64,000 nt of DNA from a virus (IMGVR_UViG_3300016469_000426:3785-67784); one strand, 5' to 3'; counted from the first letter of the stretch, positions 16,691-60,252 are shown. Notes: generated by a model not told the origin, from the letters alone. Program-made: numbers and translations.

Positions 16691-16856
16691 CTTGAGTTGG
16701 TTTTTGAGTTGACATATAACAAGCCGGCGGTAAACCGCTCAGCTTATTGATTATTCTAGCACCTCTACAAGTAGGACAAACCGGTATTGTATTAAAGGTA
16801 CCTGGACTAGGATCTACACCTGTCCCATTACATACTGGACATTTCTGAAAGCTCAT
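16638..16856 (-). CDS. small zinc-ribbon protein
   Basis: CPVCNG...CPTC pattern, 72 aa. Confidence 0.4.
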   Translation of the reverse strand: MSFQKCPVCNGTGVDPSPGTFNTIPVCPTCRGARIINKLSGLPPACYMSTQKPTQDVSNIPSEGSQLQEHKS

Positions 16857-17097
16857 ATTTTTGTTCTATTATAGTCTCGACCACGGTTAAGTTTTCTTCA
16901 TCTGGAGAATCTATCATCTGATCTAGGGTTATCTCCTCTTCCCTAGTTATCTTACCCTCTTTACGAAGTTCCGTCACAAACCCTTTTAAGATTGAACGTC
17001 GAGTAGGTCCTGTATATACAATGTTGACAACTCTTGTTGGATCTTTCACTATTACTCCTTGAAATGATAACATCATTTGTGCCCACGCATCCTTCAT
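16828..17097 (-). CDS. small protein carrying the shared IT.EE..L..M..S.D.EN module
   Basis: ...ITREEEITLDQMIDSPDEENLTVVETIIE near C-terminus. Confidence 0.45.
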   Translation of the reverse strand: MKDAWAQMMLSFQGVIVKDPTRVVNIVYTGPTRRSILKGFVTELRKEGKITREEEITLDQMIDSPDEENLTVVETIIEQKYELSEMSSM

Positions 17098-17099
17098 AA

Positions 17100-17432
17100 T
17101 TATGATTTGTCAGGATCAAAATCGATTTCCTTGTAAAGCTTATCTTCTTCATCCTGTTCCAGGACAGCTTGCCATTTAGCACCATCCGGATGAGGACACT
17201 CAGAAGATAATGACCTCGTTTTAAAAGCGAGCTTGCAGCCGCATACACTACAGCAAGGTTGTGTACCAGGCACCATGCATTTGCTTCCCTCATTGTCTAC
17301 TAGAGGACATTTAGCACAAGTATCAAGACGCTCTTTAGCAATCTTCTCTACGTACTCTTTCTTGAATAGAGAGTTTCCTACTCCTTCAAGAATTTGTTTC
17401 CGGTGATTCCAGATTTCTCTTATGTTCAGCAT
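17100..17432 (-). CDS. Cys-rich metal-binding protein
   Basis: CAKCP...C...CCSVCGC...C, 110 aa. Confidence 0.45.
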   Translation of the reverse strand: MLNIREIWNHRKQILEGVGNSLFKKEYVEKIAKERLDTCAKCPLVDNEGSKCMVPGTQPCCSVCGCKLAFKTRSLSSECPHPDGAKWQAVLEQDEEDKLYKEIDFDPDKS

Positions 17433-17802
17433 TGCGTTTTTCTTTTATCTGCTGCTTGCGACATCGATCTTCTTCAACCATCTTTTGCATCTTTGATATC
17501 TGCTCCATTCGTTGTTCGACCTCTGCTCTCACAGCATGTCTTTGAAATGTCATCTTCTCAGGATTGTGCTTAGTAAGCACTTTCTGATAATCATCTTTTG
17601 CTTCTTGAAGCTTCCAGCTTTTTATCCGGAAAGTTCCGAAGTTTGCTACTTCTACTCTTGGGCCACGCAGATCACTCAGAGCTTTACGAACTTCTTTCCA
17701 ATAGAAGTCGACGATATCTTGTACAAGATTCTCATCTGCACCTAAGGCTTCTGCCGTTTGCTTGACACACTCTTTAGGCTTCTTGGGATTCAACATGCAC
17801 AA
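17386..17802 (-). CDS. HU-like DNA-binding domain protein
   Basis: ...LSDLRGPRVEVANFGTFRIK matches the HU/IHF G-F-G-T-F core; basic coiled C-terminus. Confidence 0.45.
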   Translation of the reverse strand: MCMLNPKKPKECVKQTAEALGADENLVQDIVDFYWKEVRKALSDLRGPRVEVANFGTFRIKSWKLQEAKDDYQKVLTKHNPEKMTFQRHAVRAEVEQRMEQISKMQKMVEEDRCRKQQIKEKRNAEHKRNLESPETNS

Positions 17803-18145
17803 ACTTACAGTCTAAAAGTACGTTTCCAGTAGCTTGAATCTTCAGATCAGGATGAACCATTATTCTCTTTTTGTTCTTCCCTTCTTTGACGATGAACCCT
17901 TCATTCTCCATTTTCACCAAACAGTTTCGTACGGTCTGAGTAGTCTTGAAGATACCTTCAGTACTAGCCAAAGTACAGAACTCTGTCAGGTCATACTCAC
18001 CTTTTACAGCGAGTAGTGTCAAACAGTCCAGCTGTGATTCACTCAATGCTGCCTTTGTCAGGTAGCAATGAGTGATCAGCTGGAACTTAACTATGTCCCA
18101 TAGAGAAAGCCTAGCCCGCTTTTCTACGAGGTTAACCTTTGCCAT
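17774..18145 (-). CDS. winged-helix DNA-binding protein (MarR/ArsR-like)
   Basis: TQTVRNCLVKMENEGFIVKEGKNKK wHTH-like segment. Confidence 0.4.
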   Translation of the reverse strand: MAKVNLVEKRARLSLWDIVKFQLITHCYLTKAALSESQLDCLTLLAVKGEYDLTEFCTLASTEGIFKTTQTVRNCLVKMENEGFIVKEGKNKKRIMVHPDLKIQATGNVLLDCKFVHVESQEA

Positions 18146-18156
18146 GGTTTGTTGGT

Positions 18157-18759
18157 TTAAAAATCTACTCCTTCTTCAAGCAGAGTGTAGGTGAAGCTAT
18201 CACCGTTTCCTGCTGCTATATTCTTTTTGGCTATAGATAGAACATAAGCCAGATCCTTTTTGTATCGGTGTACTTGACACGCAGCACTGTTGTTCTTCAC
18301 GTTCACAGAATCATATCCGTGATGCTGGTTCACGCCAAAGAAACCTTCCATGATAGACTTAGGATCAAAGTCCATTATGTTGTCCTTGTTGCGGTCGCGG
18401 TAAAGCTTGACTTTGTTACCGGTTTGAACGAAGGCTTCGTACTGAGCAGCGCCATGCTTTCCGATCTTCCATACTCCACGATATTGTCCGCGGGCGAGAA
18501 TACCACAACCGGCCGGATTAAGAAGCTTCTGCTGCATGTAGTAAATACCAGGATCCGTAGTAAACTGATCATTTACCCAGATCATGTTCTTTCCGTTCTC
18601 TTGCCAGCATAGGATAAAAAAGTCATCCCAGTTGTCAACCTTACGATTTTTGGAACGTACACCGATCATGTTTACATTCATGTTTCCGGTGAAGAACTTA
18701 AAGCCAGCTTTCTCTACAGCAGCTTTTACTTTAGCATAGGTGAAATCTTCCTTTTTCAT
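18157..18759 (-). CDS. hypothetical protein, weak peptidase-like features
   Basis: 200 aa; NQHHGYD and SAACQVH motifs, no secure family assignment. Confidence 0.35.
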   Translation of the reverse strand: MKKEDFTYAKVKAAVEKAGFKFFTGNMNVNMIGVRSKNRKVDNWDDFFILCWQENGKNMIWVNDQFTTDPGIYYMQQKLLNPAGCGILARGQYRGVWKIGKHGAAQYEAFVQTGNKVKLYRDRNKDNIMDFDPKSIMEGFFGVNQHHGYDSVNVKNNSAACQVHRYKKDLAYVLSIAKKNIAAGNGDSFTYTLLEEGVDF

Positions 18760-23410: not shown

Positions 23411-25006
23411 TTAAGCTAGTTCTACAGATAGTACTCCAGCATTAGTAAAGATACGATACCTGTTACCATTAGTTCTGTCTAACACAATGAAACCGCGATT
23501 ATTGGTGAGAGTTTCAACATCTCCGTTTACAGTAAGTTTAGATGTGATACCAGCATTAGTACCAATACCTACGTTTCCGGAACCATTCAGGTAAGAATCT
23601 GCTGTTTTAGATAAAGCAAAGCTTGGAGTAGTAGAGAGCCATCCCAAGAATAAAGCATCATCATGAGTACTTTCCATGTATCCGGAAGAGTAATTACCGT
23701 ATCCCATTACAATAGCTCCTCTATGAGAAGCTTTAGTAAAATACCCAACAGCTACACCATTTTGTGCACGAGCTTCAGCAAAAGAACTTAAGCTTAGTGA
23801 ATCTACAGAATTAGCTATGGTAGATACCCCGATGGCAATAGAATTTGCACCTGAAGCGGCAGCTAGATAAGCTATAGCCACCGAAAAGTTTCCAGAAGCA
23901 GTACATTGGGTACCAAGAGCCAGTGCCGCAAAAGCAGAGGCTGTACCAAAAGAACCGATAGCTGCGGCATAATCTGCTGTAGCAACAGATTGTGTACCTA
24001 GAGCTGTAGTTGATGGCCTTGTTCCGGAAGAATAAATCCCCATTACTACCGCGTTTGCACCTGTTGCGCTGGCCTCCTGTCCTATTACGATAGAAGCTCC
24101 GCTACCTAATGTGGTATTAGCATTAATACCCATGATAATACCACCATCATCTCTCAGATATGCAAGAGCTGCATCAGCAAAATTACGAATGTGTAAACTG
24201 TAAGTAGAATTACCAGCTCCAGCTCCTTTAACATTAAAAGTAGCATTACCGGTAATAGCATTCACCATTACTTTGGTATTCTGAATATAAATTTCTGGAA
24301 CTACACTGATTGCAGGAGAAGCCCCATCTACAATAAGAGCAATACTAGATATGTTGCTCTCGTTAGAAATTACAAGATTACCGGTGGTGCTTTTTGAAAG
24401 AACATATGCTCCTTGATACCAAGTCCCGACCTCATCTGTTTTCCCGTGAAGTGTAAGATGTGCAGTATCTGAACCACCAACCATGTATGATAAACGAGCA
24501 TATCTTGTAGGTCCAGTTTCCAACATCGCAGTTACAGGCTGACCTGCTCCGCTTTTATTTACATGTAGTTCATAAAGAGGAAGAATATTGATACCAACTT
24601 TTGCGTCATTGAGTGTTCCAAACTGAAGACTATGCCCACCAAAATTTACTGATCTTGGACCAGTAAATGTTCCATTACTGTTATAGATATTTACACTTAC
24701 CGGTGGAGGTAAAAGATCTATGAAATCTTCAATACTAACTGCAAAATTTTGGTAACTGCTTTGATTTCTGGAATCTTTTACTTTTTTACCAATGACCAAA
24801 AGATCTGCATTTTCTAGTTGCAATTCTGTAATCAAACGGCCGTTAGCTATAATGGCGGGAAAGTTTACAACATCCATGTGATAACTGTATTTACTATAAT
24901 ATACAGAATTATCATCACTTTGCCAAATTTTTTGTTGCCCGGGAACGATTTGAACGTCCGTTCTCTGGTCCAAAACCAGATGTCCTGCCGCTAGACGACC
25001 GGGCAT
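23411..25006 (-). CDS. tail fibre / receptor-binding protein
   Basis: 531 aa, Gly/Ala/Ser/Asn-rich beta repeats (GANSIAIGV, GNVGIGTNAG). Confidence 0.55.
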   Translation of the reverse strand: MPGRLAAGHLVLDQRTDVQIVPGQQKIWQSDDNSVYYSKYSYHMDVVNFPAIIANGRLITELQLENADLLVIGKKVKDSRNQSSYQNFAVSIEDFIDLLPPPVSVNIYNSNGTFTGPRSVNFGGHSLQFGTLNDAKVGINILPLYELHVNKSGAGQPVTAMLETGPTRYARLSYMVGGSDTAHLTLHGKTDEVGTWYQGAYVLSKSTTGNLVISNESNISSIALIVDGASPAISVVPEIYIQNTKVMVNAITGNATFNVKGAGAGNSTYSLHIRNFADAALAYLRDDGGIIMGINANTTLGSGASIVIGQEASATGANAVVMGIYSSGTRPSTTALGTQSVATADYAAAIGSFGTASAFAALALGTQCTASGNFSVAIAYLAAASGANSIAIGVSTIANSVDSLSLSSFAEARAQNGVAVGYFTKASHRGAIVMGYGNYSSGYMESTHDDALFLGWLSTTPSFALSKTADSYLNGSGNVGIGTNAGITSKLTVNGDVETLTNNRGFIVLDRTNGNRYRIFTNAGVLSVELA

Positions 25007-25015
25007 TGTAATCAG

Positions 25016-25087
25016 AGACCCTGGAGAGATTCGAACTCCCGACCATCTGATCCGTATTCAGAAGCGCTTCCGCTGCGCCACAGGGTC
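25016..25087 (-). tRNA. tRNA-Arg (anticodon ACG)
   Basis: Hand-folded: acceptor GACCCTG/CAGGGTC, T-loop TTCGAAT, anticodon loop ATACGGA. Confidence 0.7.
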
Positions 25088-25094
25088 AAATTGG

Positions 25095-25167
25095 GGTGAC
25101 CGGCGAGATTTGAACTCGCAACCTTCTGCGCCACAAGCAGACGTTCCACCGATTGAACTACGGCCAC
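25095..25167 (-). tRNA. tRNA-His (GTG)
   Basis: Acceptor GTGGCCG/CGGTCAC, loop TTGTGGC. Confidence 0.7.
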
Positions 25168-25169
25168 AG

Positions 25170-25243
25170 AGCCCGAGGACGGAATCGAACCGCCGACCCT
25201 CTGTTTACAAAACAGTAGCTCTAACCCGCTGAGCTACTCGGGC
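25170..25243 (-). tRNA. tRNA-Thr (TGT)
   Basis: Acceptor GCCCGAG/CTCGGGC, loop TTTGTAA. Confidence 0.7.
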
Positions 25244-25251
25244 TAATATTG

Positions 25252-25324
25252 TATCCCGGACGGGATTTGAACCCGTGTGACCAGACTGAAAACCTGGGAT
25301 CCTAGACCACTAGATGACCGGGAC
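25252..25324 (-). tRNA. tRNA-Glu (TTC)
   Basis: GTCCCGG acceptor, 3-bp D-stem, loop TTTTCAG. Confidence 0.7.
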
Positions 25325-25389
25325 ATGTGAGTGTTCGGGAGACCTGGTACTATATCTCCTCCTTTATCAGGCGTCATTATCACTCGTTG

Positions 25390-25463
25390 TTGCGGGAATG
25401 GGATTCGAACCCATGTCGTTCGGCTTATGAGACCGAGCTGGAACCGCTCCAGTCCACCCCGCA
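25390..25463 (-). tRNA. tRNA-Met/Ile2-type (CAT), atypical 4-nt acceptor-to-D linker
   Basis: Acceptor TGCGGGG/TCCCGCA, loop CTCATAA, D-stem CTGG/CCAG. Confidence 0.55.
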
Positions 25464-25471
25464 TTATTTTG

Positions 25472-25545
25472 TAGGCCCTACCGGGTTTGAACCGGTGACC
25501 TTTACCTTATAAGAGTACTGCTCTGACCAGCTGAGCTAAGGGCCT
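25472..25545 (-). tRNA. tRNA with anticodon TAT (Ile, AUA-reading)
   Basis: Acceptor AGGCCCT/AGGGCCT, loop CTTATAA, one G-A mismatch at top of anticodon stem. Confidence 0.5.
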
Positions 25546-25554
25546 ATTACTTGG

Positions 25555-25626
25555 AACCCCTGACCAGACTCGAACTGGTAACCTTGAGCTTAGAAGTCTC
25601 TTGCTCTTCCATTGAGCTACAGGGGC
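25555..25626 (-). tRNA. tRNA-Arg (TCT), weak anticodon stem
   Basis: Acceptor GCCCCTG/CAGGGGT, loop CTTCTAA. Confidence 0.5.
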
Positions 25627-25634
25627 AGCTTCAG

Positions 25635-25706
25635 TTCCCCCGCCGGGAGTCGAACCCGGCCCCATAGATTAAAAGTCTATTGCCTACACCAGTTTGCTAC
25701 GAGGGA
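25635..25706 (-). tRNA. tRNA-Lys (TTT), weak D-stem
   Basis: Acceptor TCCCTCG/CGGGGGA, anticodon stem ATAGA/TCTAT, loop CTTTTAA. Confidence 0.55.
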
Positions 25707-25808
25707 ATGTTAAATCATGCTGACTTACGTCTGCACTTTATCTTCTTTCGTATCAAGCTGTTGTATAACATGACTGTTAAATCTTCTTTTTTGCTTTGTT
25801 AATTGTTG

Positions 25809-25886
25809 TAGGAACAGAAGGATTCGAACCTTCGACTGACCCTGCTTGTAAGGCAAGCGCTCTGAACCGGGCTGAGCTATGCTCCT
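25809..25886 (-). tRNA. tRNA-Val (TAC), 7-nt variable loop
   Basis: Acceptor AGGAGCA/TGTTCCT, loop CTTACAA. Confidence 0.6.
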
Positions 25887-25894
25887 ATTTTAGT

Positions 25895-25965
25895 TGACAT
25901 GGCAGGGATTGAACCTACGACCTCCCGCGTATCAGGCGGATGCTCTACCGCTGAGCTACATGTCA
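25895..25965 (-). tRNA. tRNA-Ile (GAT)
   Basis: Acceptor TGACATG/CATGTCA, loop CTGATAC. Confidence 0.7.
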
Positions 25966-25972
25966 ATGTTTG

Positions 25973-26045
25973 CGGACTGTATAGGGTTCGAACCTATGAC
26001 CCTCGCCTTAACAGGGCGCCGCTCAGCCAACCGAGCTCACAGTCC
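25973..26045 (-). tRNA. tRNA-Asn (GTT)
   Basis: Acceptor GGACTGT/ACAGTCC, loop CTGTTAA. Confidence 0.65.
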
Positions 26046-26049
26046 ATTG

Positions 26050-26126
26050 CGGTCTATGTCGGAGTCGAACCGACCTGATGTCCCGCGTGACAGGCGGGTG
26101 TCCACAACCAAGCAGACCCATAGACC
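26050..26126 (-). tRNA. tRNA-Asp (GTC), 7-nt variable loop
   Basis: Acceptor GGTCTAT/ATAGACC, stem CCCGC/GCGGG, loop CTGTCAC. Confidence 0.6.
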
Positions 26127-26131
26127 ATTAG

Positions 26132-26205
26132 AGCGAGTGATGAGGCTCGAACTCACAACACCCTGCTTGGAAGGCAGGTACTCTAGCCAATTGAGCTACA
26201 CTCGC
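26132..26205 (-). tRNA. tRNA-Gly (TCC)
   Basis: Acceptor GCGAGTG/CACTCGC, loop CTTCCAA. Confidence 0.7.
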
Positions 26206-26318
26206 AGTATCAACACTGATGAGGCTTTTTCAGAACTTAAGCTACACCCAGCATAGCATACGGCCTTTAACCGTTCCTCATCCTCCCGCTTCTGGATTAC
26301 AGGAGTTGTTTCAACTTG

Positions 26319-26393
26319 TGGAATGGCTGGGATTTGAACCCAGGACCTTCTGCTTGCAAAGCAGCTGCTCGACCAGACCGAGCTCCGCACCCC
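26319..26393 (-). tRNA. tRNA-Ala (TGC) with G3-U70
   Basis: Acceptor GGGGTGC/CCATTCC (G3.U70, one C-C mismatch), loop TTTGCAA. Confidence 0.55.
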
Positions 26394-26447
26394 TAGTGAC
26401 CCTTTTCTTTAATTTTCAGTTTGTGGCGGCCGATCCATATCTGCTAG

Positions 26448-26520
26448 TCGGAGTTGCTGGACTCGAACCAACGGTCTCCTGGTCCCAAACCAGGCGCGAT
26501 ACCAACTTCGCTAAACCCCG
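26448..26520 (-). tRNA. tRNA-Pro (TGG)
   Basis: Acceptor CGGGGTT/AACTCCG, loop TTTGGGA. Confidence 0.7.
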
Positions 26521-26523
26521 TAA

Positions 26524-26560
26524 ACAAAAAAAGCCCCTGATTTCTCAGAGGCTCTTTCTT
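26524..26560. terminator. hairpin flanked by A7 and T-rich tracts (bidirectional terminator-like) inside tRNA array
   Basis: agcccctga tttc tcagaggct, flanked by aaaaaaa and ctttctt. Confidence 0.4.
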
Positions 26561-26751
26561 ATCAAGTTAATCCAAAATTCTTATTTCATGATGGACACAA
26601 CAAGAGCCTCTACGCAATTCGGTTCGTCACCTTTGCGCACGATATTCATTTGGGCCGTATGTTGTATGTTTCTCATTTGCGTTACAAATATACAAACAAT
26701 TTATACATGTGCAACACAACATGTATATTTTTTTTTGATTTTCTTTATATG

Positions 26752-26825
26752 TACTCCCGACCGGACTCGAACCGGTAGCTTACGGATTTTAAGTCCGCTG
26801 TGTTTACCCATTTCACCACGGAAGT
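26752..26825 (-). tRNA. class-I tRNA with anticodon TAA (Leu codon UUA) but short variable loop and Gln/Glu-type 3-bp D-stem; identity uncertain
   Basis: Acceptor ACTTCCG/CGGGAGT, stem GCGGA/TCCGT, loop CTTAAAA, variable AAGCT. Confidence 0.5.
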
Positions 26826-26829
26826 ATTG

Positions 26830-26907
26830 TACCCTCTGAGAGACTCGAACTCTCACCCGAAGACTAGATCCTAAGTCTAGCGCGTCTACCAATTTCGCCA
26901 AGAGGGC
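26830..26907 (-). tRNA. tRNA-Leu (TAG) with short (9-nt) variable arm
   Basis: Acceptor GCCCTCT/AGAGGGT, stem CTAGA/TCTAG, loop CTTAGGA. Confidence 0.55.
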
Positions 26908-26914
26908 GTATTAG

Positions 26915-27000
26915 CGGAGAACAGTGGCCCTGATCCACAATCGTAATATTACGATCAGACTGCTTAGCAGGCAGCTCCTACCCAGGTAGGTTTATTCTCC
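26915..27000 (-). tRNA. tRNA-Ser (GCT)-like, class II, atypical T-loop
   Basis: Acceptor GGAGAAT/GTTCTCC, loop CTGCTAA (as in E. coli Ser-GCU), long variable hairpin ATCGTAATATTACGAT, T-loop ATCAGGG. Confidence 0.45.
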
Positions 27001-27004
27001 ATTG

Positions 27005-27077
27005 AGGTACCGGCGTGATTCGAACACGCGTACTCGAGTTTTGCAGACTGAGGACTAAACCGCTCATCCACGGTACC
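27005..27077 (-). tRNA. tRNA-Cys (GCA)
   Basis: Acceptor GGTACCG/CGGTACC, loop CTGCAAA. Confidence 0.6.
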
Positions 27078-27083
27078 TTGTTG

Positions 27084-27156
27084 CACATGAGGAAGGGGTC
27101 GAACCTCCGACACCTGGTTTTGGAGACCAGTGCTCTACCATCTGAGCTACTCATGT
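27084..27156 (-). tRNA. tRNA-Trp (CCA)
   Basis: Acceptor ACATGAG/CTCATGT, loop CTCCAAA. Confidence 0.7.
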
Positions 27157-27160
27157 ATAG

Positions 27161-27251
27161 CGGAAAGCGGAGGACCCGACCCCCAGTCCAGTTACCCAGA
27201 CACCCGGTTTTCAAGACCGGTCGCGGCTCCAATGCCACTGCTTCACTTTCC
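27161..27251 (-). tRNA. tRNA-Ser (TGA), class II, atypical T-loop
   Basis: Stem CCGGT/ACCGG, loop CTTGAAA; similar to E. coli Ser-UGA; T-loop TCGGGT. Confidence 0.5.
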
Positions 27252-27256
27252 AATTG

Positions 27257-27340
27257 TGGGACCCGGTGGACTCGAACCACTCCTCCGAAGAGACCGAATT
27301 TACAGTCCGGCTGCCGTATCCAAGACGACTTTCAGTTCCC
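27257..27340 (-). tRNA. tRNA-Tyr (GTA), class II
   Basis: Stem CCGGA/TTCGG, loop CTGTAAA, variable hairpin CTCTTCGGAG. Confidence 0.6.
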
Positions 27341-27348
27341 ATGTTTTG

Positions 27349-27421
27349 TGGAGCCACCTGGTATCGAACCAGGATCTCAGGATTTTCAGTCCCACGCATA
27401 GACCGTCTTTGCTATAGCTCC
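27349..27421 (-). tRNA. tRNA-Phe (GAA)
   Basis: Acceptor GGAGCTA/TGGCTCC, loop CTGAAAA. Confidence 0.7.
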
Positions 27422-32952: not shown

Positions 32953-33348
32953 ATGAGCTCACCGATCAGCACTACATCGGAACACTCGCTTGATACCAAG
33001 CTATTACATATGAATGCAGAGGGGCAACCAATTAAACTAACGCGTATGAATGAGTATCTCGAACTGAGAAAAGAACTGAAAGATATCATCACTGGCCTAC
33101 TAGCCATGAAAGATCTTCAAGATCCCGACGGTGATCCTGCCGGTATACTTATTCAGAACTCAGCTACAGAGTACTGGTTACAGACCAGATACAATGCCTT
33201 TCTTAGGCTGGAAATATGTACTAAGTCCATGAACCAGTTCTTTACCAATGATGAGTTCCGACGACTCATACAAATGATAAGATCTGAGGACTCAGAGAAT
33301 GTTCATGTGGCTCGAGCCATACTGGATGAAAAGATTAAGACATTATAA
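32953..33348 (+). CDS. hypothetical protein with shared C-terminal module
   Basis: ...FRRLIQMIRSEDSENVHVARAILDE. Confidence 0.45.
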   Translation: MSSPISTTSEHSLDTKLLHMNAEGQPIKLTRMNEYLELRKELKDIITGLLAMKDLQDPDGDPAGILIQNSATEYWLQTRYNAFLRLEICTKSMNQFFTNDEFRRLIQMIRSEDSENVHVARAILDEKIKTL

Positions 33349-42732: not shown

Positions 42733-43756
42733 AGAATCAGAAATTTTGCGTAACTTTGTCACATGACAAAGTATGAACAAGGTGAAGAGTTATACAGACA
42801 AGGTATGTTCTTAAAAGACATTGCTCTGGAGCTAAAAATATCAGCTCATAGACTATCTGTATATCTCAGGAAAAGAGGTGTTCCGAAGAACCCTCATCAT
42901 TACAAGGCAACTGTAAAGTCTACTCTTAGAACCGACATCTTCAAAGATATCGATACTAAGGAGAAAGCCTATTGGCTCGGTTTTATCTTTGCTGACGGGT
43001 ATGTTTCAGAAAGAAACGTTTTTGAAGTGGCGCTATCCATTAAGGATATCTCTCACTTAGAAAAGCTAAAGCTCTTTCTAGGGATAAGCAATCCTATAAA
43101 GATTACAGACACAAGTTGTAGATTATATGTAACTGACAAGACTTTTGTTGCACACCTTAATAAGCACGGTGTTGTACCAAGGAAATCTCTTATCCTCAAG
43201 TATCCATCAATTGATCGAGCCTTTGACAAAGCTTTCATGATGGGCTATTTTGATGGAGACGGATGTCTTACATATAATCGTGTTAGAAAAAGACTTCAGC
43301 TCAGTCTAATAGGAACACCAGAGTTCCTAGAAGCATATAAGAAGAGACTTTCTACTACAGCAAAGCTGACTCTTTATCAGGATAAAAGACATAAGCCACA
43401 AACAAGATATATCTCCGCAGCTGGAAAACACGCTGTAGAAATCTATCAGCAACTTGTAGATGATTCCCCTATACACCTTGAGAGAAAACGCAAAGTATTC
43501 TCTGCCGCGCTAGGTAGTAATACTTAGTGTTATTAACGGGTAAAAACGGTGAAGGCTGAAATGCTAATACCGTGCTAAGACTTCTGATTACGAAAGGCAG
43601 AAGTACAGTGTAACGCATAGTCGGTGAATAAATATAATCCGACCAAGAGTATCCGTCACCCAAACAGTAAAGCTGTGGGTGAAAATGTATGCTGAGCTCA
43701 CACGAAAGACAAGTGTGAGAATCACAGGATAAAAAGCCTGTGAGATAACAAAACTG
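42733..43756 (+). mobile_element. group-I-like intron in AAA+ ATPase gene, carrying LAGLIDADG endonuclease
   Basis: 5' exon ends on U (ggT|aga), intron ends on G 43756; 244-nt structured tail after HEG ORF; splicing fuses GGYGNG|KT. Confidence 0.65.
42763..43527 (+). CDS. LAGLIDADG homing endonuclease with N-terminal HTH
   Basis: AYWLGFIFADGYV and MMGYFDGDGCL motifs. Confidence 0.8.
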   Translation: MTKYEQGEELYRQGMFLKDIALELKISAHRLSVYLRKRGVPKNPHHYKATVKSTLRTDIFKDIDTKEKAYWLGFIFADGYVSERNVFEVALSIKDISHLEKLKLFLGISNPIKITDTSCRLYVTDKTFVAHLNKHGVVPRKSLILKYPSIDRAFDKAFMMGYFDGDGCLTYNRVRKRLQLSLIGTPEFLEAYKKRLSTTAKLTLYQDKRHKPQTRYISAAGKHAVEIYQQLVDDSPIHLERKRKVFSAALGSNT

Positions 43757-44422
43757 AAAACAGAAACAGCTATGCGTATCGGTTCAGCCGGCCTTACAAA
43801 AGGTATGGCGTACTTCTACTGCAAAGATGCCGATGTATTCCACATGCTTCTTGGCCAAGCTAAGAACTACCAGCCGTGCATCGTGTTCCTTGAGGACGTG
43901 GATGAAATCGGTGCAGGTACCAAGCGTGATGCCGACATGAATAAGATCCTGAATACTCTGGATGGTGTACAGACTAAGGGTAACAACCTTACTGTAATCT
44001 TTACAACCAACCATGAGAAGCGTATCAACCCGGCTCTCCGTCGCCCAGGTCGTATTGACCTTGTGGTGAACTTTGAGAATCCGGACAAAGTTGCCGTTGC
44101 AGAAATCTATCATCGTTATCTGGCTCCATTGGATACAGAAAAGTTGTTGGATTACAACGTGCTTGCTGATCGCACTCCGGACTGTCCTGGTGCAGTTGTT
44201 GCTGAAATTGCTAAGCGTGCAGTTAAACTCTGCAAGAAGCGTGGCGCAGTAAATGATGACCTGGTAAAAGCAGCAGTTGATTCCATGAAGCATCATTTGA
44301 AACTGATGAAAGAAGAAGTGGAAGAACCACGTACTGGTGACATGACCATCACGGTTAAGAATGCCAGCATGAACGTTTCTGAAGCAGCTTCTAAGAATGG
44401 AGCGGCTGTCAAAGCCAATTAA
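43757..44422 (+). CDS. AAA+ ATPase, 3' exon
   Basis: Begins KTETAMRIG...; Walker B CIVFLEDVDE, sensor-1 TTN, Arg finger ALRRPGRID. Confidence 0.65.
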   Translation, partial: KTETAMRIGSAGLTKGMAYFYCKDADVFHMLLGQAKNYQPCIVFLEDVDEIGAGTKRDADMNKILNTLDGVQTKGNNLTVIFTTNHEKRINPALRRPGRIDLVVNFENPDKVAVAEIYHRYLAPLDTEKLLDYNVLADRTPDCPGAVVAEIAKRAVKLCKKRGAVNDDLVKAAVDSMKHHLKLMKEEVEEPRTGDMTITVKNASMNVSEAASKNGAAVKAN

Positions 44423-44670: not shown

Positions 44671-45654
44671 ATGATCTCATTGATTATTATCCTGCTTTCA
44701 ATCGTTGTCGCTGTTGGATGGCTTATCTCCACACGAAGTAATGCGTTCGGACCGGAACAAAAAGATCGTTACGGCGATGTTACCCGACCTTTCAATCCAA
44801 AGTGGTTATTTACTCCGATCGCCATTGTTGTAGTAGGACTCCTGACCGGAATGATTCAGCCTTATTCCCTTGAAAGAGTAGACTCTGGACATATCGGTAT
44901 TAAAGTGAAATTGACCGGTAATGAACGCGGCGTATCTGATTACACATACAAAACTGGATGGGTCGTATACAATACCTGGACGGAGAACCTATATGAGTTC
45001 CCCACCTTTCAGCAGCATATTGAATACGATAATCAGATTGTGATAACCAAAGGAGGATTTCAGGCTACTATTAAACCAACATTCAACTATTCACTCAAAG
45101 CCGATGCCGTAGGGGATATGTTCTCTGAACTACGCCTCGACATAAAAAGTATTGAGAAGGGATGGTTAATGACAGCTATTGTTGGATCTGTTAATGATGT
45201 GGCCAATCGGTGGGCAGTGGATGACATTTTCAATAAACGAGAAGAGTTTGAATCTGCAATCGTAGCTGAATGTAATAAGCGTGTATCCAAATGGTTCAGA
45301 GTAAGTCAGCTTAGAACTAATATTGTTCCCCCTGAAGCGCTAAAAGCATCCATCGAGGCAAAGACTAAAGCTGTGCAAGATGCCCAAGCTAAAATGCAGG
45401 AAGCATTAGTAGCAGAAGCAGATGCAAAGAAAAAGATTGCTATTGCCAGAGGTGACTCAGCACAAGCTGTAATTAAAGCATCCGGTCTAGCTGAATCCGA
45501 GATAATCGAAGCTCGAGGTACGGCAGAAGCTATGCGACTTAAACAAAAAGAGCTTAATGCTCTCTATGTGGAGTTCATTAAAGCTCAGAACTGGGATGGT
45601 AAACTACCAACAACTGTATTAGGGAATAGTACCCCTATGATCAACGTTAAGTAA
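44671..45654 (+). CDS. SPFH (band-7/prohibitin/HflKC-like) domain membrane protein
   Basis: N-terminal TM; SGHIGIKVKLTGNERGV...NQIVITKGGFQATIKP core; Ala/Lys/Glu coiled-coil tail. Confidence 0.6.
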   Translation: MISLIIILLSIVVAVGWLISTRSNAFGPEQKDRYGDVTRPFNPKWLFTPIAIVVVGLLTGMIQPYSLERVDSGHIGIKVKLTGNERGVSDYTYKTGWVVYNTWTENLYEFPTFQQHIEYDNQIVITKGGFQATIKPTFNYSLKADAVGDMFSELRLDIKSIEKGWLMTAIVGSVNDVANRWAVDDIFNKREEFESAIVAECNKRVSKWFRVSQLRTNIVPPEALKASIEAKTKAVQDAQAKMQEALVAEADAKKKIAIARGDSAQAVIKASGLAESEIIEARGTAEAMRLKQKELNALYVEFIKAQNWDGKLPTTVLGNSTPMINVK

Positions 45655-48523: not shown

Positions 48524-48753
48524 AATTTTTGGTGAACGGTGGCGTATCGCTACTGCTTAGCCCCGAAAACGAAATGGAAGAGCATTTGCTCAAGCAAATG
48601 ATGAAGCAGGACAATGAGCTAACCGAGATTCGGTCAAGTGTTGTAGTGCTGAACAAGACCTTCCGAAACGGAATCCTTGTAGCCAAGAAAACAAGCAACA
48701 AGAAGGAAGAAGAACCAAGTAAAGAAAATGAAGGCAAAGAAGAAACCGTGTGA
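48514..48753 (+). CDS. hypothetical protein
   Basis: 79 aa ORF. Confidence 0.4.
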   Translation: MQVEFLVNGGVSLLLSPENEMEEHLLKQMMKQDNELTEIRSSVVVLNKTFRNGILVAKKTSNKKEEEPSKENEGKEETV

Positions 48754-49171
48754 TGGTTGCGGGAATGATAAGGTGATTTGGAAAAATCACCAGGGGAAGC
48801 GTTACTGTAAGCAGTGCTGGAGTGCTCATTCAGTTACTACTCAGCCTAAACCAACGGCTAAACGGAAAGCGCTTCCTCATCGTTCCCAAAAACGTATAAA
48901 AGAGGAAGCAGAATATTCTCAGAAGAGAAGGGTGTTTTTACTAAATCATCCGATGTGTGAAGCTCATCTGTTAGGAATCTGTACTCAACATGCAACCGAT
49001 GTTCATCATAAAGCCGGTCGCACCGGAACTCTTTACCTCGACGAAAAATACTGGTTAGCCACATGTCGCAGTTGCCACATGTGGATTGAAACACACCCGA
49101 AGGAAGCCCGGGAAATGGGGCTTTCATTATCAAAGCATAATCAGAATGAGCAAGAAGAAGGAACTCCCTAA
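48728..49171 (+). CDS. HNH-type nuclease domain protein (NinG/Rap-like)
   Basis: N-terminal CDGCGN...CKQC zinc ribbon; C...HATDVHHKAGR...CRSCHMWIETH. Confidence 0.45.
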   Translation: MKAKKKPCDGCGNDKVIWKNHQGKRYCKQCWSAHSVTTQPKPTAKRKALPHRSQKRIKEEAEYSQKRRVFLLNHPMCEAHLLGICTQHATDVHHKAGRTGTLYLDEKYWLATCRSCHMWIETHPKEAREMGLSLSKHNQNEQEEGTP

Positions 49172-49406
49172 GATAGGTTCCAAGATGTACGCTATTCATC
49201 GTAAGTACATCGATGAAAATCTTAACTGTCGTGTGCTTGTTGCCACTGTGCGAACATACGAAAGAATAAACGGTCAAATTCGACCTGTATTGAACGTTGT
49301 GGGTAATCCTAAGCAGGAAGTCCACCATGACACTCATTATGTCTACGAAGACTTACCAGCCTGTATGAAAGCCTTGAAAGGAGGTAAACGTGGAGCATCC
49401 AAGTAG
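49146..49406 (+). CDS. hypothetical basic protein
   Basis: ORF overlapping upstream gene end. Confidence 0.35.
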   Translation: MSKKKELPKIGSKMYAIHRKYIDENLNCRVLVATVRTYERINGQIRPVLNVVGNPKQEVHHDTHYVYEDLPACMKALKGGKRGASK

Positions 49407-49689
49407 AACTTATCTTAAGAGGATCATGAAGAACTTCTGGAAGACTAAGTGGGTACCCGGTAGATCTCCTGAAATTTGGGCGAATGTTTATCAACGAAAT
49501 TGTCGCGATAGAGAAAGGATCGGACAGGCATTGCTAAAGCTTGAGCTGGAAAAACGTATTACACCTGAAGAAAAAGCTAATCTATCAAAGATGCTCGAAT
49601 CGCCTGATCATGAAAATATCTATATGGCTATATCTGTTATGGCCGGTTTAGCTCCTAGGAAATTTCAACGGAGAGAAAGGAATCGTTAA
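49390..49689 (+). CDS. small protein with shared module
   Basis: ...ITPEEKANLSKMLESPDHENIYMAISVMAGL. Confidence 0.5.
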   Translation: MEHPSRTYLKRIMKNFWKTKWVPGRSPEIWANVYQRNCRDRERIGQALLKLELEKRITPEEKANLSKMLESPDHENIYMAISVMAGLAPRKFQRRERNR

Positions 49690-50705
49690 TGGATGTACAA
49701 GATAAGATTGCTCGTGACGAATATGAGGTAATGAAGGCCAAGTTATCTCAAATGGTAGGAGGAGACCCTCAAAAGTTGGAGATTCTTCTTAACACAAAGC
49801 TTATGCGTTGGCTTAAAGGTAAAAATCAGTGGAGGTACAAACACACATTTGCAACCGGTAAAAGAGCTGGTCAAACACACGAATTCGTTTACAACGGTCG
49901 CATAAAACGTGATGTAAGAACTGCCAAGATTTTGTTACCTAAAGAGATTGAGAAGCTTTATGCTGCTCAGATCATAACAGAAGAGGAACGCGCAAATTTT
50001 AAGGCAATGTTGAAGTCTCCAGATGATGAAAACATTCTCATGGCTGAACTTAGTATTAACGAGCTTCGAAAGAAGCGTCTGGCAAAAGAAGCCAGAAAAA
50101 AGAATAAGAGCATAATGAAAACGCTACAAGAAATCTTTGCGCAAGACATGGCACAATTTCGGTACGAGATTAAAAACTTTATAGAAAACTTCTTTGAAGA
50201 AAATAAAGAGGTTCGTCCAATAGTGTTTGTACTCGAAAGAAGTGAAAGTAAAACCAAGTTCGGAATCCTTGCTGGTATTGGTCAGTTGTTTACAAGCGAT
50301 GAAGGAAAAAATCAAGCTGCTGAAATTCTTCGTGAATTCATTAAAGAACATAAAGTAATCGCAATGGCTACAGCTTTTGAAGGTTGGATGCGTGCAGTAC
50401 CGATTGAAGATAAGGATGAAGTCCTTGATGAAAACGGAAACTACCGTAATGACGTTCCGCGTCCTTCAGAAGCACCGGATCGTGTAGAAGTGCTCATGAT
50501 AAATTTCGAAACTCACAATCAGGAATCGAAAGTTTTCTACAAGATTAATCGTGAAGAAGCTGAACCAAAATTAGAGATTATGCAAAATCTAGATTGGTCA
50601 GAGAAAACTGGCAAATCTAAAGGAAGATTTGATGATCTTCTTAGTGAGAACTATACAGAAATGGCAGAACATCTCCGCGAAAGTATAGAAAAGAGCATGA
50701 ATTAA
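49689..50705 (+). CDS. hypothetical protein with shared module
   Basis: ...IITEEERANFKAMLKSPDDENILMAELSINEL; 338 aa. Confidence 0.5.
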   Translation: MDVQDKIARDEYEVMKAKLSQMVGGDPQKLEILLNTKLMRWLKGKNQWRYKHTFATGKRAGQTHEFVYNGRIKRDVRTAKILLPKEIEKLYAAQIITEEERANFKAMLKSPDDENILMAELSINELRKKRLAKEARKKNKSIMKTLQEIFAQDMAQFRYEIKNFIENFFEENKEVRPIVFVLERSESKTKFGILAGIGQLFTSDEGKNQAAEILREFIKEHKVIAMATAFEGWMRAVPIEDKDEVLDENGNYRNDVPRPSEAPDRVEVLMINFETHNQESKVFYKINREEAEPKLEIMQNLDWSEKTGKSKGRFDDLLSENYTEMAEHLRESIEKSMN

Positions 50706-57012: not shown

Positions 57013-57080
57013 GGAGGACGTAGCTCAGTTGGTAGAGCAACGGTTGCCGTGGGTCGTAGGTTCGAGTCCTACCATCCTCC
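57013..57080 (+). pseudogene. tRNA-like sequence with truncated anticodon arm (tRNA pseudogene or tRNA-derived element)
   Basis: GAGGACG TA GCTCAGTTGGTAGAGC (canonical D-arm) then ACGG-TTG-CCGT mini-hairpin, T-arm GTAGG TTCGAGT CCTAC, acceptor CATCCTC; ~68 nt. Confidence 0.4.
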
Positions 57081-58073: not shown

Positions 58074-58075
58074 CT

Positions 58076-58453: not shown

Positions 58454-58688
58454 GTGGTTGTCTCTACAACCAGGAGATGTAATCTCCAACCAAAAAGGAA
58501 CCAACTGGAGGGTTGTTTTGAGCAGCAAAAACGGGTCAATAAGAATACCCTCTGATAGAGATTGGGGTAGAAGAGGCTATACAGTATACGGTAGAGGGGA
58601 TAAACGTCTCTTCAAGAAAACAGGACTAAGAGTAAAACTGATAAGAAGATGGCACACTATTACTATTGCAAAGGATGTGACCAAGTAA
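58440..58688 (+). CDS. hypothetical protein
   Basis: 82 aa ORF. Confidence 0.4.
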   Translation: MTTDEWLSLQPGDVISNQKGTNWRVVLSSKNGSIRIPSDRDWGRRGYTVYGRGDKRLFKKTGLRVKLIRRWHTITIAKDVTK

Positions 58689-58846
58689 TAGTCCGCAAGG
58701 AGCCTATTACAACATCTTACTGCGAAACTTCTGGCAAAACTATCAAGATGAAGGCTCTTACTCCAGAAGAAGTTAAAGACCTCCGCTTTTTGCAGAAGAA
58801 GGCAAAGAAATGAACCGAGTCAAACCGGAGTACAGGGCAACGGTAT

Positions 58847-59155
58847 TTGATGAGCAGATCAGATACCGTCCCTTTTACACAAAAGCTTATGACACTTAAA
58901 GAATACATCAATCAAAAAGATCCTGAGAGGATGCCTCATGTAATACTCAAGATCGAAGAGTATACTGAAGGTGTAAGAAGAAAAACTCGGATGGGTGATA
59001 TTCATACTCAGATCTTTATTACATCACCGTTATTCCATGAAGCTTTCCCTGAAGCACGTGGAGAATATTTGATGATGGGTAAATGGCCAAGACTCTACGC
59101 TGTAGACTCAGACGGTAATCCGAAAGGAGCAAGTTGTTTTAGAATAGAACTATGA
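58847..59155 (+). CDS. hypothetical protein
   Basis: 102 aa ORF. Confidence 0.4.
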   Translation: MMSRSDTVPFTQKLMTLKEYINQKDPERMPHVILKIEEYTEGVRRKTRMGDIHTQIFITSPLFHEAFPEARGEYLMMGKWPRLYAVDSDGNPKGASCFRIEL

Positions 59156-59361
59156 GCATGGAAGAAACAAAGAACAAATGGTGGGGATATGTCCACACCT
59201 CAGGTAGCCTTCAAGCAAAGCGCTACTTCGGGCCTGAAGATATTCAGGAAGCTAATGAGAGCCCCTTTTGTAAACAAGTAGTGGGGCCTTTCGACGCTAA
59301 AGATCGTGATGAAGCTTTAGAGATCGTTAAACAGAAAGTGCTGAAGCCAGATGTGTCGTAA
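59152..59361 (+). CDS. hypothetical protein
   Basis: 69 aa ORF. Confidence 0.4.
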   Translation: MSMEETKNKWWGYVHTSGSLQAKRYFGPEDIQEANESPFCKQVVGPFDAKDRDEALEIVKQKVLKPDVS

Positions 59362-59710
59362 ATGTATAGAAAAGCGTCAAGAAGAGCAGTTAAAACGTGC
59401 TAAGCTTGAAAGAAAAGAACGCGCAAAGGAAAAAGCATATTTGCTATTGAAGGCAGATCTTATAGCCGGCAGTCAATATGACTCGCTCTGTAAGATGATA
59501 GATTCTTCCGATGATGAAAATCTCACATTAGCAGAAAACATTATAGTGAACGTAAAAAGATCATCTGTTCGATACACCATCGAAGATGTTATTAAAGCTG
59601 TGGATACTTGTTATGTGATGGCCTCTAATAGTAGTCGTGAAGAAGTCTATGAAGAAGTAAAGATCAAACTCTCTAATGTTATACAAAATGAGATATCGCA
59701 GATACAGTGA
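59351..59710 (+). CDS. hypothetical protein with shared module
   Basis: ...YDSLCKMIDSSDDENLTLAENIIVNV. Confidence 0.45.
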   Translation: MCRKCIEKRQEEQLKRAKLERKERAKEKAYLLLKADLIAGSQYDSLCKMIDSSDDENLTLAENIIVNVKRSSVRYTIEDVIKAVDTCYVMASNSSREEVYEEVKIKLSNVIQNEISQIQ

Positions 59711-59776
59711 AAGAAGTACTCATGCTCTTATCATAGCATATGTTGCTCTGTTGATAGCTCTATTATCTTTAGTGCG

Positions 59777-60028
59777 ATGAAGGTAAACCTTAAGGAACAC
59801 TGGCAAATGAAGGAAACTCTAAAGTATATCCAGAGTGTACTTCGTGATCAGCCGGTAACAAAAGGTCTGGCCAGAAAGCTAGACAAAAGTATTCTCTTCT
59901 ACGAAGAAATAGAAGTAGACCTGGAACTAGGTGGTGAATCGATCATTGAGTTGGACCAGGAGCGTCTTGAAGCAATTCAAGAGCGCAATAAAGCACAATC
60001 ATTTATGAACCAAGCAGATGATTTATGA
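59777..60028 (+). CDS. hypothetical protein
   Basis: 83 aa ORF. Confidence 0.4.
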   Translation: MKVNLKEHWQMKETLKYIQSVLRDQPVTKGLARKLDKSILFYEEIEVDLELGGESIIELDQERLEAIQERNKAQSFMNQADDL

Positions 60029-60252
60029 GCCAAAACCAAGTAGAAAAAATGGTAGAGGAACCAGAACCAACGGAAAGCAGAGCCAGATGGATTGATACAC
60101 ACAGATTGTATCAGCATCTTTTACACTTGCACAATATGCAAGCTATAACACCTGACCAATACAAAACCTTATACAAACAGATAAATTCTCGAGATGAAGA
60201 GAACCTAGTTGTAGCACAGGAAAGTATTGCACAGTTGATCAGCAGTCTATGA
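60025..60252 (+). CDS. small protein with shared module
   Basis: ...ITPDQYKTLYKQINSRDEENLVVAQESIAQL. Confidence 0.45.
   Translation: MSQNQVEKMVEEPEPTESRARWIDTHRLYQHLLHLHNMQAITPDQYKTLYKQINSRDEENLVVAQESIAQLISSL

Follow-up and report, generated by a model that had tools for sequence, protein, structure and literature searches.

A predicted three-helix domain with an S-x-D-x-E-N turn recurs on otherwise unrelated proteins of an uncultured phage clade

Why does one phage genome carry the same short peptide module in several ORFs that have nothing else in common? An earlier note on the window, the whole 64,000-nucleotide stretch of viral DNA that was analysed, had placed a module of ~30 aa in seven otherwise unrelated ORFs, and read it as a single HEAT/PBS-lyase-like unit, possibly a docking or packaging tag. 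Here we examined which ORFs carry the module, what kind of domain it is, how far it has spread, and which function fits it best.

A module shared by six ORFs

A profile HMM of six copies was run over the six reading frames of the window, which hold 1099 stop-to-stop ORFs of 30 aa or more. The results showed six module ORFs at 67-74 bits, namely 16828-17097 on the minus strand and 32953-33348, 49390-49689, 49689-50705, 59351-59710 and 60025-60252 on the plus strand, and the next best ORF reached 6.6 bits. The seventh ORF of the earlier note, 59777-60028 (plus strand), has to be dropped, as it was matched by neither the regular expression nor the HMM, and its orthologues in loci L001-L003 likewise had no module. 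When each copy was left out of the profile in turn, every left-out copy was found with E values of 1.6e-5 to 6e-11, against at least 0.13 for the best non-module ORF of the window. BLAST detected no similarity among the six proteins outside the module, so they are otherwise unrelated as proposed. The remainder of the source contig had no additional copy, and the count stands at six in one 68-kb genome.

At the DNA level the copies had only 58% identity per column, and synonymous codons varied at the invariant residues S (TCT/TCG), D (GAT/GAC), E (GAA/GAG) and N (AAC/AAT). Because third-codon positions vary at invariant residues, a DNA-level repeat or recent gene conversion was ruled out, and the constraint acts on the protein.

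In four of the six proteins, no more than 10 residues lay between the end of the module and the C-terminus. ORF 16828-17097 encodes 89 aa with the domain at aa 33-82 by HMM (nt 16852-17001), and the exact protein occurs in public metagenomes (P0002). ORF 32953-33348 (131 aa; C-terminal domain by HMM at aa 78-129, nt 33184-33339) holds the most divergent of the six copies, with SEDSEN at the turn and the leave-one-out E value of 1.6e-5; a near-identical database protein is P0007. ORF 60025-60252 (75 aa; domain by HMM at aa 24-73, nt 60094-60243) has little besides the domain, with an N-terminal tail that is acidic and probably disordered, and is thus essentially domain-only; its orthologues P0003-P0006 retain the module.

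ORF 49390-49689 (99 aa; domain by HMM at aa 40-89, nt 49507-49656) is basic (pI 10.3), with the 'KNFWKTKWVPGRSPE' part N-terminal to the domain and a basic tail after it. Its non-module part defines a 15-member group, and one protein of this type gave a sub-threshold match to DUF5454 (24.3 against 25 bits, 'faint' in precomputed data), a family for which no literature was found. It is the first gene of a two-gene cassette with ORF 49689-50705, and this cassette was kept in loci L002 and L117. The second gene encodes 338 aa with an internal domain (aa 79-128, nt 49923-50072), whose helix 3 runs on as a ~60-residue helix into a C-terminal alpha/beta domain; S-P-D-x-E-N was invariant in its orthologues down to 41% identity. 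The domain is also internal in ORF 59351-59710 (119 aa; by HMM at aa 20-70, nt 59408-59560), between an N-terminal CxxC plus basic coil and a 49-aa C-terminal part. Presence of this gene varied among close relatives: L158-L160 have it, and in L002 the orthologues of 59152 and 59777 have no such gene between them. The module is kept in orthologues of both 49689-50705 and 60025-60252.

Fold, family and genomic setting

To describe the fold, AlphaFold2 was run on the C-terminal 54 aa of ORF 60025-60252 with a 114-sequence alignment. The model had a pLDDT of 97.2 with helices at 4-16, 22-32 and 37-53, and the domain is thus predicted to be a self-folding, closed three-helix bundle of ~50 residues. 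The conserved unit is ~50 aa and not ~30 aa because the helix upstream of 'IT' belongs to it, and the single HEAT/PBS-lyase-like unit gives way to this bundle. The signature is h-x-x-L-x(5)-I-T-x-E-E-x(3)-L-x-x-M-[IL]-x-S-P-D-x-E-N-L-x-V-A-x-x-I-I. Across the family, helix 1 is followed by helix 2, capped by I-T-x-E-E and carrying L-x-x-M-[IL], by the turn, and by helix 3 with V-A-x-x-I-I.

The S-x-D-x-E-N turn between helices 2 and 3 was near-invariant, being found in all six window copies and in 145 of 156 relatives. Family conservation was 100% for S and D, 98% for N and 95% for E, values inflated by ascertainment because all profile-building copies have the turn; degenerate turns (SADIES, SSALDN, GTPADIN) were seen in syntenic or tandem copies. 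The structurally equivalent N-cap Thr of helix 2 was just 72% conserved, and core positions 57-88%. Outside the turn, conservation falls on positions that a three-helix fold itself requires, namely a hydrophobic core and two helix-capping boxes. Exposed positions were highly variable among paralogues, and there is therefore no clearly conserved binding surface. The domain is mildly acidic, with a median net charge of -2; helix-turn-helix DNA binding was rejected on this charge and on geometry, as that class calls for a basic recognition helix, open tri-helical geometry and a match to HTH families, a description that the domain does not fit.

Relatives were plentiful, as an exhaustive profile search returned 376 protein clusters at E <= 1e-3. 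With these matches and the conservation in orthologues, the outcome that the earlier note named as a refutation did not occur. Repetitive protein P0135 and giant protein P0011 were false positives among the profile matches. The domain matched no Pfam, PHROG, PDB or BFVD family and is an undescribed family, which we call the 'SPDxEN' three-helix domain. Nearly all matching clusters were metagenomic proteins of 60-130 aa with the domain at the C-terminus. Among 156 relatives (median protein 93 aa), the module ended within 10 residues of the C-terminus in 79%, which bears out the earlier view that it often lies at or near this end. The family is modular: the non-module parts of 161 proteins fell into 103 unlinked groups, and from protein to protein the domain was C-terminal, internal or N-terminal. 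In several phages it lay N-terminal to Dda-like SF1B helicases, and alignment to cultured Dda homologues began only at residue ~56-65, the module being absent from them. One unit per protein was the rule (155/156), with two units ~70 aa apart in P0088, and 16 of 156 proteins were domain-only. Tandem arrays of up to 4 module genes were found. Reversed domain order was seen in one protein.

We next considered the taxonomic range. A strict core DNA pattern, which covers ~28% of known copies (44/156), gave 100 matches in 185,579 species genomes against ~104 expected by chance, with 0 true copies, and 54 matches in IMG/VR, of which ~40 were true copies. A cellular or prophage origin was rejected on this result; since the pattern covers ~28% of known copies, rare cellular copies may exist. 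Full six-frame HMM scans of the nearest cultured relatives, FpV4 and Lbo-JY46, found no domain, and tblastn of the consensus against cultured phages gave no match, with a low-complexity filter that possibly masked the query. In the data searched, the domain is restricted to phages, and judged by sequence it has so far been found only in a large uncultured clade with crAss-type capsid genes (at least 599 IMG/VR contigs with the same terminase).

The module genes are accessory and occupy hypervariable slots. In the slot upstream of the terminase gene, a module gene with a capsid-protein fragment was present in 8 of 44 related loci and missing from 82%, so such genes are dispensable and the domain is no essential hub. 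A 135-aa protein at 60435-60842, with no recognisable family, was next to a module gene in 8-9 of the 15 loci that were sampled independently; as this was not so in all 15, it was rejected as an obligate partner by synteny and is a candidate only.

Short, promiscuous domains are easily overlooked when they are carried by small phage proteins that evolve fast, and such proteins are thought to hold much of the biology of host takeover and counter-defence. A domain that is absent from Pfam, PHROGs, PDB and BFVD, yet occurs in hundreds of protein clusters of a phage clade that is abundant and uncultured, offers a handle on otherwise uninterpretable ORFs.

What the domain may do

An interaction or docking role is the most plausible function. 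We infer, tentatively and a little short of an even chance, a protein-protein docking (adaptor) domain with one partner common to the family. Duplication of genes and shuffling of domains would have carried it within and between genomes, so that it follows any of over 100 unrelated short N-terminal parts, precedes Dda-type helicases, or stands alone. In favour of this reading are the modularity of the family, the fusions to helicases and to a capsid-protein fragment, the restriction to phages in the data searched and the acidic charge, which does not suit a DNA binder. It would tether the part fused to it onto a common partner, which could be a phage protein, a host protein or another copy of the domain. 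The S-x-D-x-E-N turn would be the likely contact site, because S, D, E and N (95-100%, ascertainment included) exceed the equivalent N-cap Thr (72%) in conservation. The 16 domain-only proteins count against this reading, as a pure tag does not explain them, and so do the variable exposed positions, the copies with degenerate turns and the dispensability of the module genes. If the reading holds, one identified partner would make all module ORFs annotatable, and should the domain prove to be a common address label, proteins of this phage group could be directed with a tag that is compact and portable.

It is somewhat unlikely, though the strongest of the alternatives, that the motif merely specifies a stable three-helix mini-fold that serves as a diversifying binder scaffold with no common partner. 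Each paralogue would then bind its own target through its variable surface or N-terminal part, for example in host takeover or counter-defence, much as protein A-type domains are binders. The four turn residues argue against this, being far better kept than the helix 2 cap or the core, and the repeated fusion to unrelated parts and helicases is more in keeping with a common address than with a variable warhead.

The capsid raises another possibility. In the largest module-bearing subfamily, which includes ORF 16828-17097, the domain is fused to a fragment of the phage's own major capsid protein (MCP), an unusual combination. The MCP was identified via Pfam Crass_capsid (E 3.5e-32), and its residues 319-388 (7380-7589, minus strand) recur as a copy in the N-terminal part of this subfamily ('type A', R-x-F-V-V-x-T-G-x-x-G-M). 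Comparison of A6 with the MCP gave an hhalign probability of 96.6% (E 6.2e-10) and, by HMMER with the module masked, E 4.2e-10; P0014 and P0049 had weak Crass_capsid matches at the corresponding profile positions. MCP residues 510-535 (…IWVKDPTKVLKIVMRNP; 6939-7016, minus strand) resemble the N-terminus of ORF 16828-17097 and its close relatives (…VIVKDPTRVVNIVYTGP), where ~30 aa are similar to this C-terminal strand. For A7 against this segment, hhalign gave P 4e-5 with a probability of 70%, and HMMER E 2.5e-4. These similarities suggest small proteins that interact with the capsid protein or imitate a portion of it.

Acting as the packaging tag considered in the earlier note, and by analogy with the logic of the P22 coat-binding hairpin, the T4 capsid-targeting sequence and the P1 Dar proteins, the domain might load accessory proteins, helicase included, into or onto the head for co-injection, and the capsid-fragment subfamily might be the anchor. 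The own-MCP homology of the largest subfamily (E 6e-10 and 4e-10) speaks for this, as does its place in the head-gene cluster, between an HU/IHF-like gene and the exonuclease, terminase, portal and MCP genes; module-bearing proteins are also small and accessory, as injected effectors often are. We nevertheless consider it distinctly unlikely. Only one of the six window module genes lies in the head and packaging block and five lie in the opposite, replication-side block; the domain is position-independent with no sign of a cleavage signal, is fused to Dda helicases, and is acidic, in contrast to the basic P22 hairpin; and most related loci do not have the capsid-fragment gene. A broader version, in which the domain is the address label of a phage docking system with a capsid-fragment anchor and virion-carried effectors, is a long shot. 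In it, the MCP fragment with its domain would form an anchor protein on or in the head, to which other domain-bearing accessory proteins, sometimes a Dda-type helicase, would be recruited through domain-domain contacts or a shared receptor; the virion would then carry a variable, exchangeable effector set and deliver it along with its DNA.

It is also very doubtful that copies bind each other, as solitary ARM/HEAT- or SHOCT-like units, into hetero-oligomers. Several copies per genome, the tandem arrays, the conserved pair 49390-49689 and 49689-50705 and the one two-copy protein would fit such association, as would ARM-like spacing in helix 2-turn-helix 3 and recurrent weak SHOCT matches. Against it, AlphaFold2 gave a closed monomeric bundle at very high confidence, the ARM similarity was not significant (P 0.12), and SHOCT itself failed an oligomerisation test (PMC3581485). 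Chance or compositional similarity of the coiled-coil-like, low-complexity kind, or an in-frame DNA repeat, has a negligible likelihood: E, K, I and L abound in this short motif, and both false positives were of this sort, but the reading is refuted by leave-one-out E values of 1e-5 to 1e-11 against a background of at least 0.13, four positions invariant across more than 145 sequences, varying synonymous codons, retention in orthologues and a confident fold prediction.

Comparison with known domains and systems

The phage domain was compared with SHOCT (PF09851), a mainly bacterial domain of ~30 aa with two amphipathic helices and strongly conserved Gly and Glu (PMC3581485, Eberhardt et al. 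2013). Both are short, all-helical and promiscuous with no known function, and the phage domain is, like SHOCT, mostly C-terminal with many different partners (79%; 103 groups). The SHOCT core resembles the first half of the module, G-K-I-T-x-E-E-Y-x-x-L. Among 114 members, SHOCT (9), SHOCT_2 (5) and SHOCT-like (2) were the sole recurrent weak Pfam matches; the SHOCT matches lay below the gathering score of 27 bits (best E 0.004; best among the matches listed 16 bits), and the window proteins reached E 0.19 at best. Unlike SHOCT, the phage domain has ~50 aa, three helices and S-x-D-x-E-N, which SHOCT lacks, and occurs on phage contigs only. Of the SHOCT-type residues, the Gly before I-T was 18% conserved and the Glu of T-x-E-E 76%.

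The ARM consensus …LVQLLSSPNEQILQEA… is spaced like helix 2-turn-helix 3 of the module, L-x-x-[LM]-[LI]-x-S-P-D-x-E-x-x-x-x-A. Alignment by hhalign against this consensus, an indicative test only, shared the register at a probability of 0.5% (P 0.12), and kinship to ARM/HEAT therefore lacks statistical support. One Arm match (E 0.0019) was found in Pfam among the 114 members, and neither HEAT nor HEAT_PBS appeared at E <= 1 among the matches listed, the top 25 families, which take in every family matched by at least two members and some matched by one. An ARM/HEAT solenoid needs tandem units, whereas the phage domain is nearly always single. Generic three-helix-bundle binders were compared as well, namely the paramyxovirus phosphoprotein X domain, the staphylococcal protein A domain, coronavirus nsp7 and designed minibinders.

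Dockerin-cohesin, the T4 capsid-targeting sequence and the coat-binding hairpin of the P22 scaffolding protein are docking elements shared by unrelated proteins. Dockerins are extracellular and bind Ca through a duplicated loop-helix motif, with the cohesin scaffold as a multi-site receptor; the phage domain had no D-x-D-x-D-G-type loop, the Pfam scans gave no dockerin family, and an unsystematic look at the window recognised no repeated receptor protein. The T4 sequence is an N-terminal, cleaved ~10-mer with a fixed terminal position and co-expression with head genes, whereas the position of the phage domain varies. The P22 hairpin is basic with two helices, and the phage domain is acidic with three. 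What the phage domain has in common with these elements is the arrangement itself, one short element on many unrelated proteins of one genome, as a common address would be.

Six copies of the SPDxEN domain and its predicted fold

The earlier note had placed a shared module of about 30 residues in seven ORFs, and six of these carry it: 16828-17097 (-), 32953-33348, 49390-49689, 49689-50705, 59351-59710 and 60025-60252. The motif was also looked for in ORF 59777-60028, and was not found there. When an HMM built from the six copies was run against all 1099 six-frame ORFs of the window, the six scored 67-74 bits and the runner-up ORF 6.6 bits. In leave-one-out searches, the five-copy profile recovered the sixth copy at E values from 1.6e-5 to 6e-11, versus at least 0.13 for the best unrelated ORF. 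Chance similarity was excluded. The carriers are otherwise unrelated, as had been proposed, since masking the module left no detectable similarity among the six proteins. The DNA of the copies showed only 58% identity per column, and the synonymous codons used for the invariant S, D, E and N differed between copies, indicating that it is the protein that is constrained and that the copies are old. The remainder of the contig was scanned and yielded no additional copy.

AlphaFold2 was given 114 aligned module segments, with the last 54 residues of ORF 60025 as the lead sequence, and the resulting model (pLDDT 97.2, pTM 0.80) has helices at residues 4-16, 22-32 and 37-53. The unit, named SPDxEN after its S-x-D-x-E-N turn, is thus predicted to be a closed three-helix bundle of ~50 residues, and not the single helix-turn-helix hairpin first described, because it includes an extra, weakly conserved helix upstream of the I-T with which the motif had been taken to begin. 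The same bundle reappeared in the model of full-length ORF 49689, where helix three extends as a ~60-residue helix followed by a C-terminal alpha/beta domain. Among 156 relatives, the conserved positions of the first half were I (82%), T (72%), E (76%), L (84%), M (88%) and I/L (91%), those of the turn S (100%), P (59%), D (100%), E (95%) and N (98%), and those after the turn V (62%), A (87%), I (58%) and I (71%). By general helix-capping rules, I-T-x-E-E-Y would be the hydrophobic staple and capping box of helix 2, and S-P-D-x-E-N forms the turn and the N-cap for helix 3. With a median charge of -2 and a pI of 5.2, the domain is mildly acidic.

The phage genome and its accessory genes

The contig is a phage of ~68 kb with 42% G+C, and the window takes in most of it. 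The late block on the minus strand encodes a major capsid protein of the crAss type (MCP; 6918-8543), which matches Pfam Crass_capsid at E 3.5e-32, the portal (9963-12734) and the large terminase (TerL; 12740-14947), and at its end a 531-aa protein with a YadA-head repeat (23411-25006, -; E 3.3e-13), a probable tail fibre or adhesin. A dense array of ~21 tRNA genes (24935-27421, -) separates this block from the early, plus-strand block, within which one further tRNA lies (57014-57080, +). The listed ORFs 25894-26256, 26219-26839 and 27015-27401 run across tRNAs encoded on the other strand, and they may not be genuine. The long plus-strand block after the array carries a helicase, a uracil-DNA glycosylase (UDG) and numerous small ORFs, and DnaB, AAA_24 and primase genes are found on the same contig just outside the window. 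The nearest cultured relatives, Flavobacterium phage FpV4 (TerL identity 24%) and Leptolyngbya phage Lbo-JY46 (MCP identity 29%), are remote. Related TerL genes were present on at least 599 IMG/VR contigs, the best 80 being 65-99% identical, and the clade is therefore an abundant uncultured one. One 122-kb contig, IMGVR_UViG_3300044843_000700 (loci L003, L136, L168 and L182), has a TerL 99% identical to that of the window and has several module genes in common with it; the window's contig measures 67.8 kb, so that either it is incomplete or the longer contig contains a large extra region.

Selfish endonucleases are unusually abundant in this genome. The UDG gene is split (61179-61427 and 62359-62748, +) by a group I intron (61973-62264, +; Rfam 73.9 bits) containing an HNH-type endonuclease ORF (61471-62058, +), and in the related loci L118 and L142 the UDG-like ORF is single and uninterrupted (252 and 270 aa). 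ORF 41854-42753 lies between two LAGLIDADG endonuclease ORFs (40669-41469 and 42763-43527, +), after which comes an AAA ATPase fragment (43772-44422, +) that covers only the latter half of the AAA model. This arrangement suggests that introns or inteins have split up a gene in the 40669-44422 region. Homing-endonuclease-like genes of the GIY-YIG/HNH (38271-38837, +) and HNH (48728-49171, +) types were also identified. Upstream of the 49390/49689 cassette, genes for a vWA-like protein (39437-40546, +; DUF2828 and DUF7788) and an SPFH/Band-7 protein (44671-45654, +) lie close to the AAA ATPase fragment, and this block is syntenic in another contig (L117). The 471-aa product of 35872-37287 (+) contains a PcfJ-like domain (E 4.9e-6), whose family is known otherwise from conjugative plasmids.

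Distribution, gene slots and capsid-fragment fusions

A profile search had been proposed in the earlier note; run exhaustively over 1.84 billion cluster representatives, it returned 376 proteins at E <= 1e-3, with two false positives (one repetitive, one giant protein) among the top 150. The remaining matches were nearly all metagenomic proteins of 60-130 aa, and any name given was 'hypothetical protein'. The domain is often at or near the C-terminus, as first observed, ending within 10 residues of it in 79% of relatives, and those orthologues that are present retain it. The non-module parts of the relatives fell into 103 groups unlinked by BLAST, and 16 of 156 proteins consisted of the domain only. 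On Dda-like SF1B helicases of several phages the domain is N-terminal (protein P0116; loci L118, L124, L142 and L149), and cultured Dda homologues are without it, their alignment starting only at residue ~56-65. With the strict core pattern, a back-translated M-I-x-S-P-D-x-E-N, 185,579 bacterial and archaeal species genomes gave 100 matches versus ~104 expected by chance and no true module, and IMG/VR gave 54 matches, ~40 of them true. FpV4 and Lbo-JY46 were scanned in full in all six frames, and no domain was found. As far as these searches reach, only uncultured phages carry the domain.

Module genes occupy variable slots, two of which recur. The first lies upstream of TerL, between Cys-rich and HU/IHF-like genes (17100-17802) and a PD-(D/E)XK exonuclease (15857-16690); the second, where the Dda fusions also sit, adjoins the UDG gene and gene 60435-60842 (+). 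Sampling independent of the module showed that both slots are facultative. Among 44 TerL-selected loci with both flanking genes, eight had module genes in the first slot (seven with one, one with four in tandem), and the other 36 had unrelated genes there or were empty. In 8-9 of 15 loci chosen via a 60435-like gene, a module gene lay within ~2 kb, and one of the remaining loci had a degenerate copy at the same spot. Gene 59351 is absent from one close relative, and the adjacent pair 49390 and 49689 is kept in distant relatives. The 135-aa product of 60435-60842 has no family in Pfam, PHROGs or PDB and is conserved in many contigs at 40-97% identity; its gene very often adjoins a gene for a module protein or for a fusion of the module with a Dda helicase, making it a candidate functional partner. 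At 16638-16690 (-), and at the corresponding position of L185, L188 and L227, the gene before the exonuclease ends in …PTQDVSNI.SP… even when it is unrelated; this stretch overlaps the exonuclease gene start in another frame, and its conservation probably belongs to that start region. In L227 (695-1803) and in L115, L119, L120, L139 and L144, three or four module genes stand in tandem, and the signature turn decays from copy to copy (SEDEES, SPDHEN, SADIES, SSALDN), pointing to rapid paralogue divergence within one locus.

The largest non-module group comprised 23 proteins with the consensus R-x-F-V-V-x-T-G-x-x-G-M-x-x-F-N. It was homologous to MCP residues 319-388 of the same phage (hhalign probability 96.6%, E 6.2e-10; HMMER against the window's ORFs with the module masked, E 4.2e-10), and two members gave weak Pfam Crass_capsid matches at the corresponding profile positions. 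This subfamily is therefore an unusual fusion of a capsid-protein fragment to the domain. ORF 16828 is a shortened member (hhalign E 1.2e-17), its N-terminus (…VIVKDPTRVVNIVYTGP) resembling the C-terminal strand of the MCP (…IWVKDPTKVLKIVMRNP; hhalign P 4e-5, HMMER E 2.5e-4). The fusions are encoded within the head and packaging block, and in one relative (P0138) the order of capsid fragment and domain is reversed.

Possible function and comparison with known families

The domain is real, folds autonomously, is restricted to phages in the data searched, has been freely recombined with other parts and resides on accessory genes, and it brings order to the otherwise opaque ORFs of an abundant uncultured phage clade. 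We tentatively favor a role in protein-protein docking, in which the near-invariant S-x-D-x-E-N turn would be the contact and the carriers would share a common partner. The turn is far stricter than the equivalent helix 2 cap or the core, which argues for a shared site. Against such a site, the copies from which the profile was built all had the turn, degenerate copies exist, and the remaining exposed positions all vary. The main alternative, a diversifying binder scaffold whose carriers have no common partner, appears rather unlikely. The packaging tag suggested in the earlier note seems improbable: the capsid-fragment fusion hints at it, but five of the six copies belong to the replication side and the domain is not confined to one position within its carriers. 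Homotypic association, which the tandem and paired genes would fit and the confident monomeric AlphaFold2 model does not, is less probable still.

As for relatives of this putative docking domain, neither Pfam nor PHROG gave anything above threshold for the six proteins or 114 relatives, a sequence profile search of PDB gave no match, and Foldseek against BFVD gave none at E <= 1e-3. Weak Pfam matches recurred only for models of the SHOCT type, seen in 9, 5 and 2 of the 114 relatives, with SHOCT_2 giving the lowest E (0.0016); there was also one Arm match. The spacing of the ARM consensus equals the helix 2-turn-helix 3 pattern of the domain and hhalign aligned the two in the same register, but the match was not significant (P 0.12), so the HEAT/PBS-lyase label first attached to the module reflects resemblance only at the level of pattern. 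SHOCT is a shorter, two-helix bacterial domain whose commonest carriers are Band-7 proteins (PMC3581485); a link between the Band-7 block of this phage and the module was not found. SHOCT and the present domain are alike in behavior only, both being short, C-terminal and promiscuous. On present evidence this is no new kind of system; SPDxEN is a new family within a known class, that of short promiscuous helical interaction domains.
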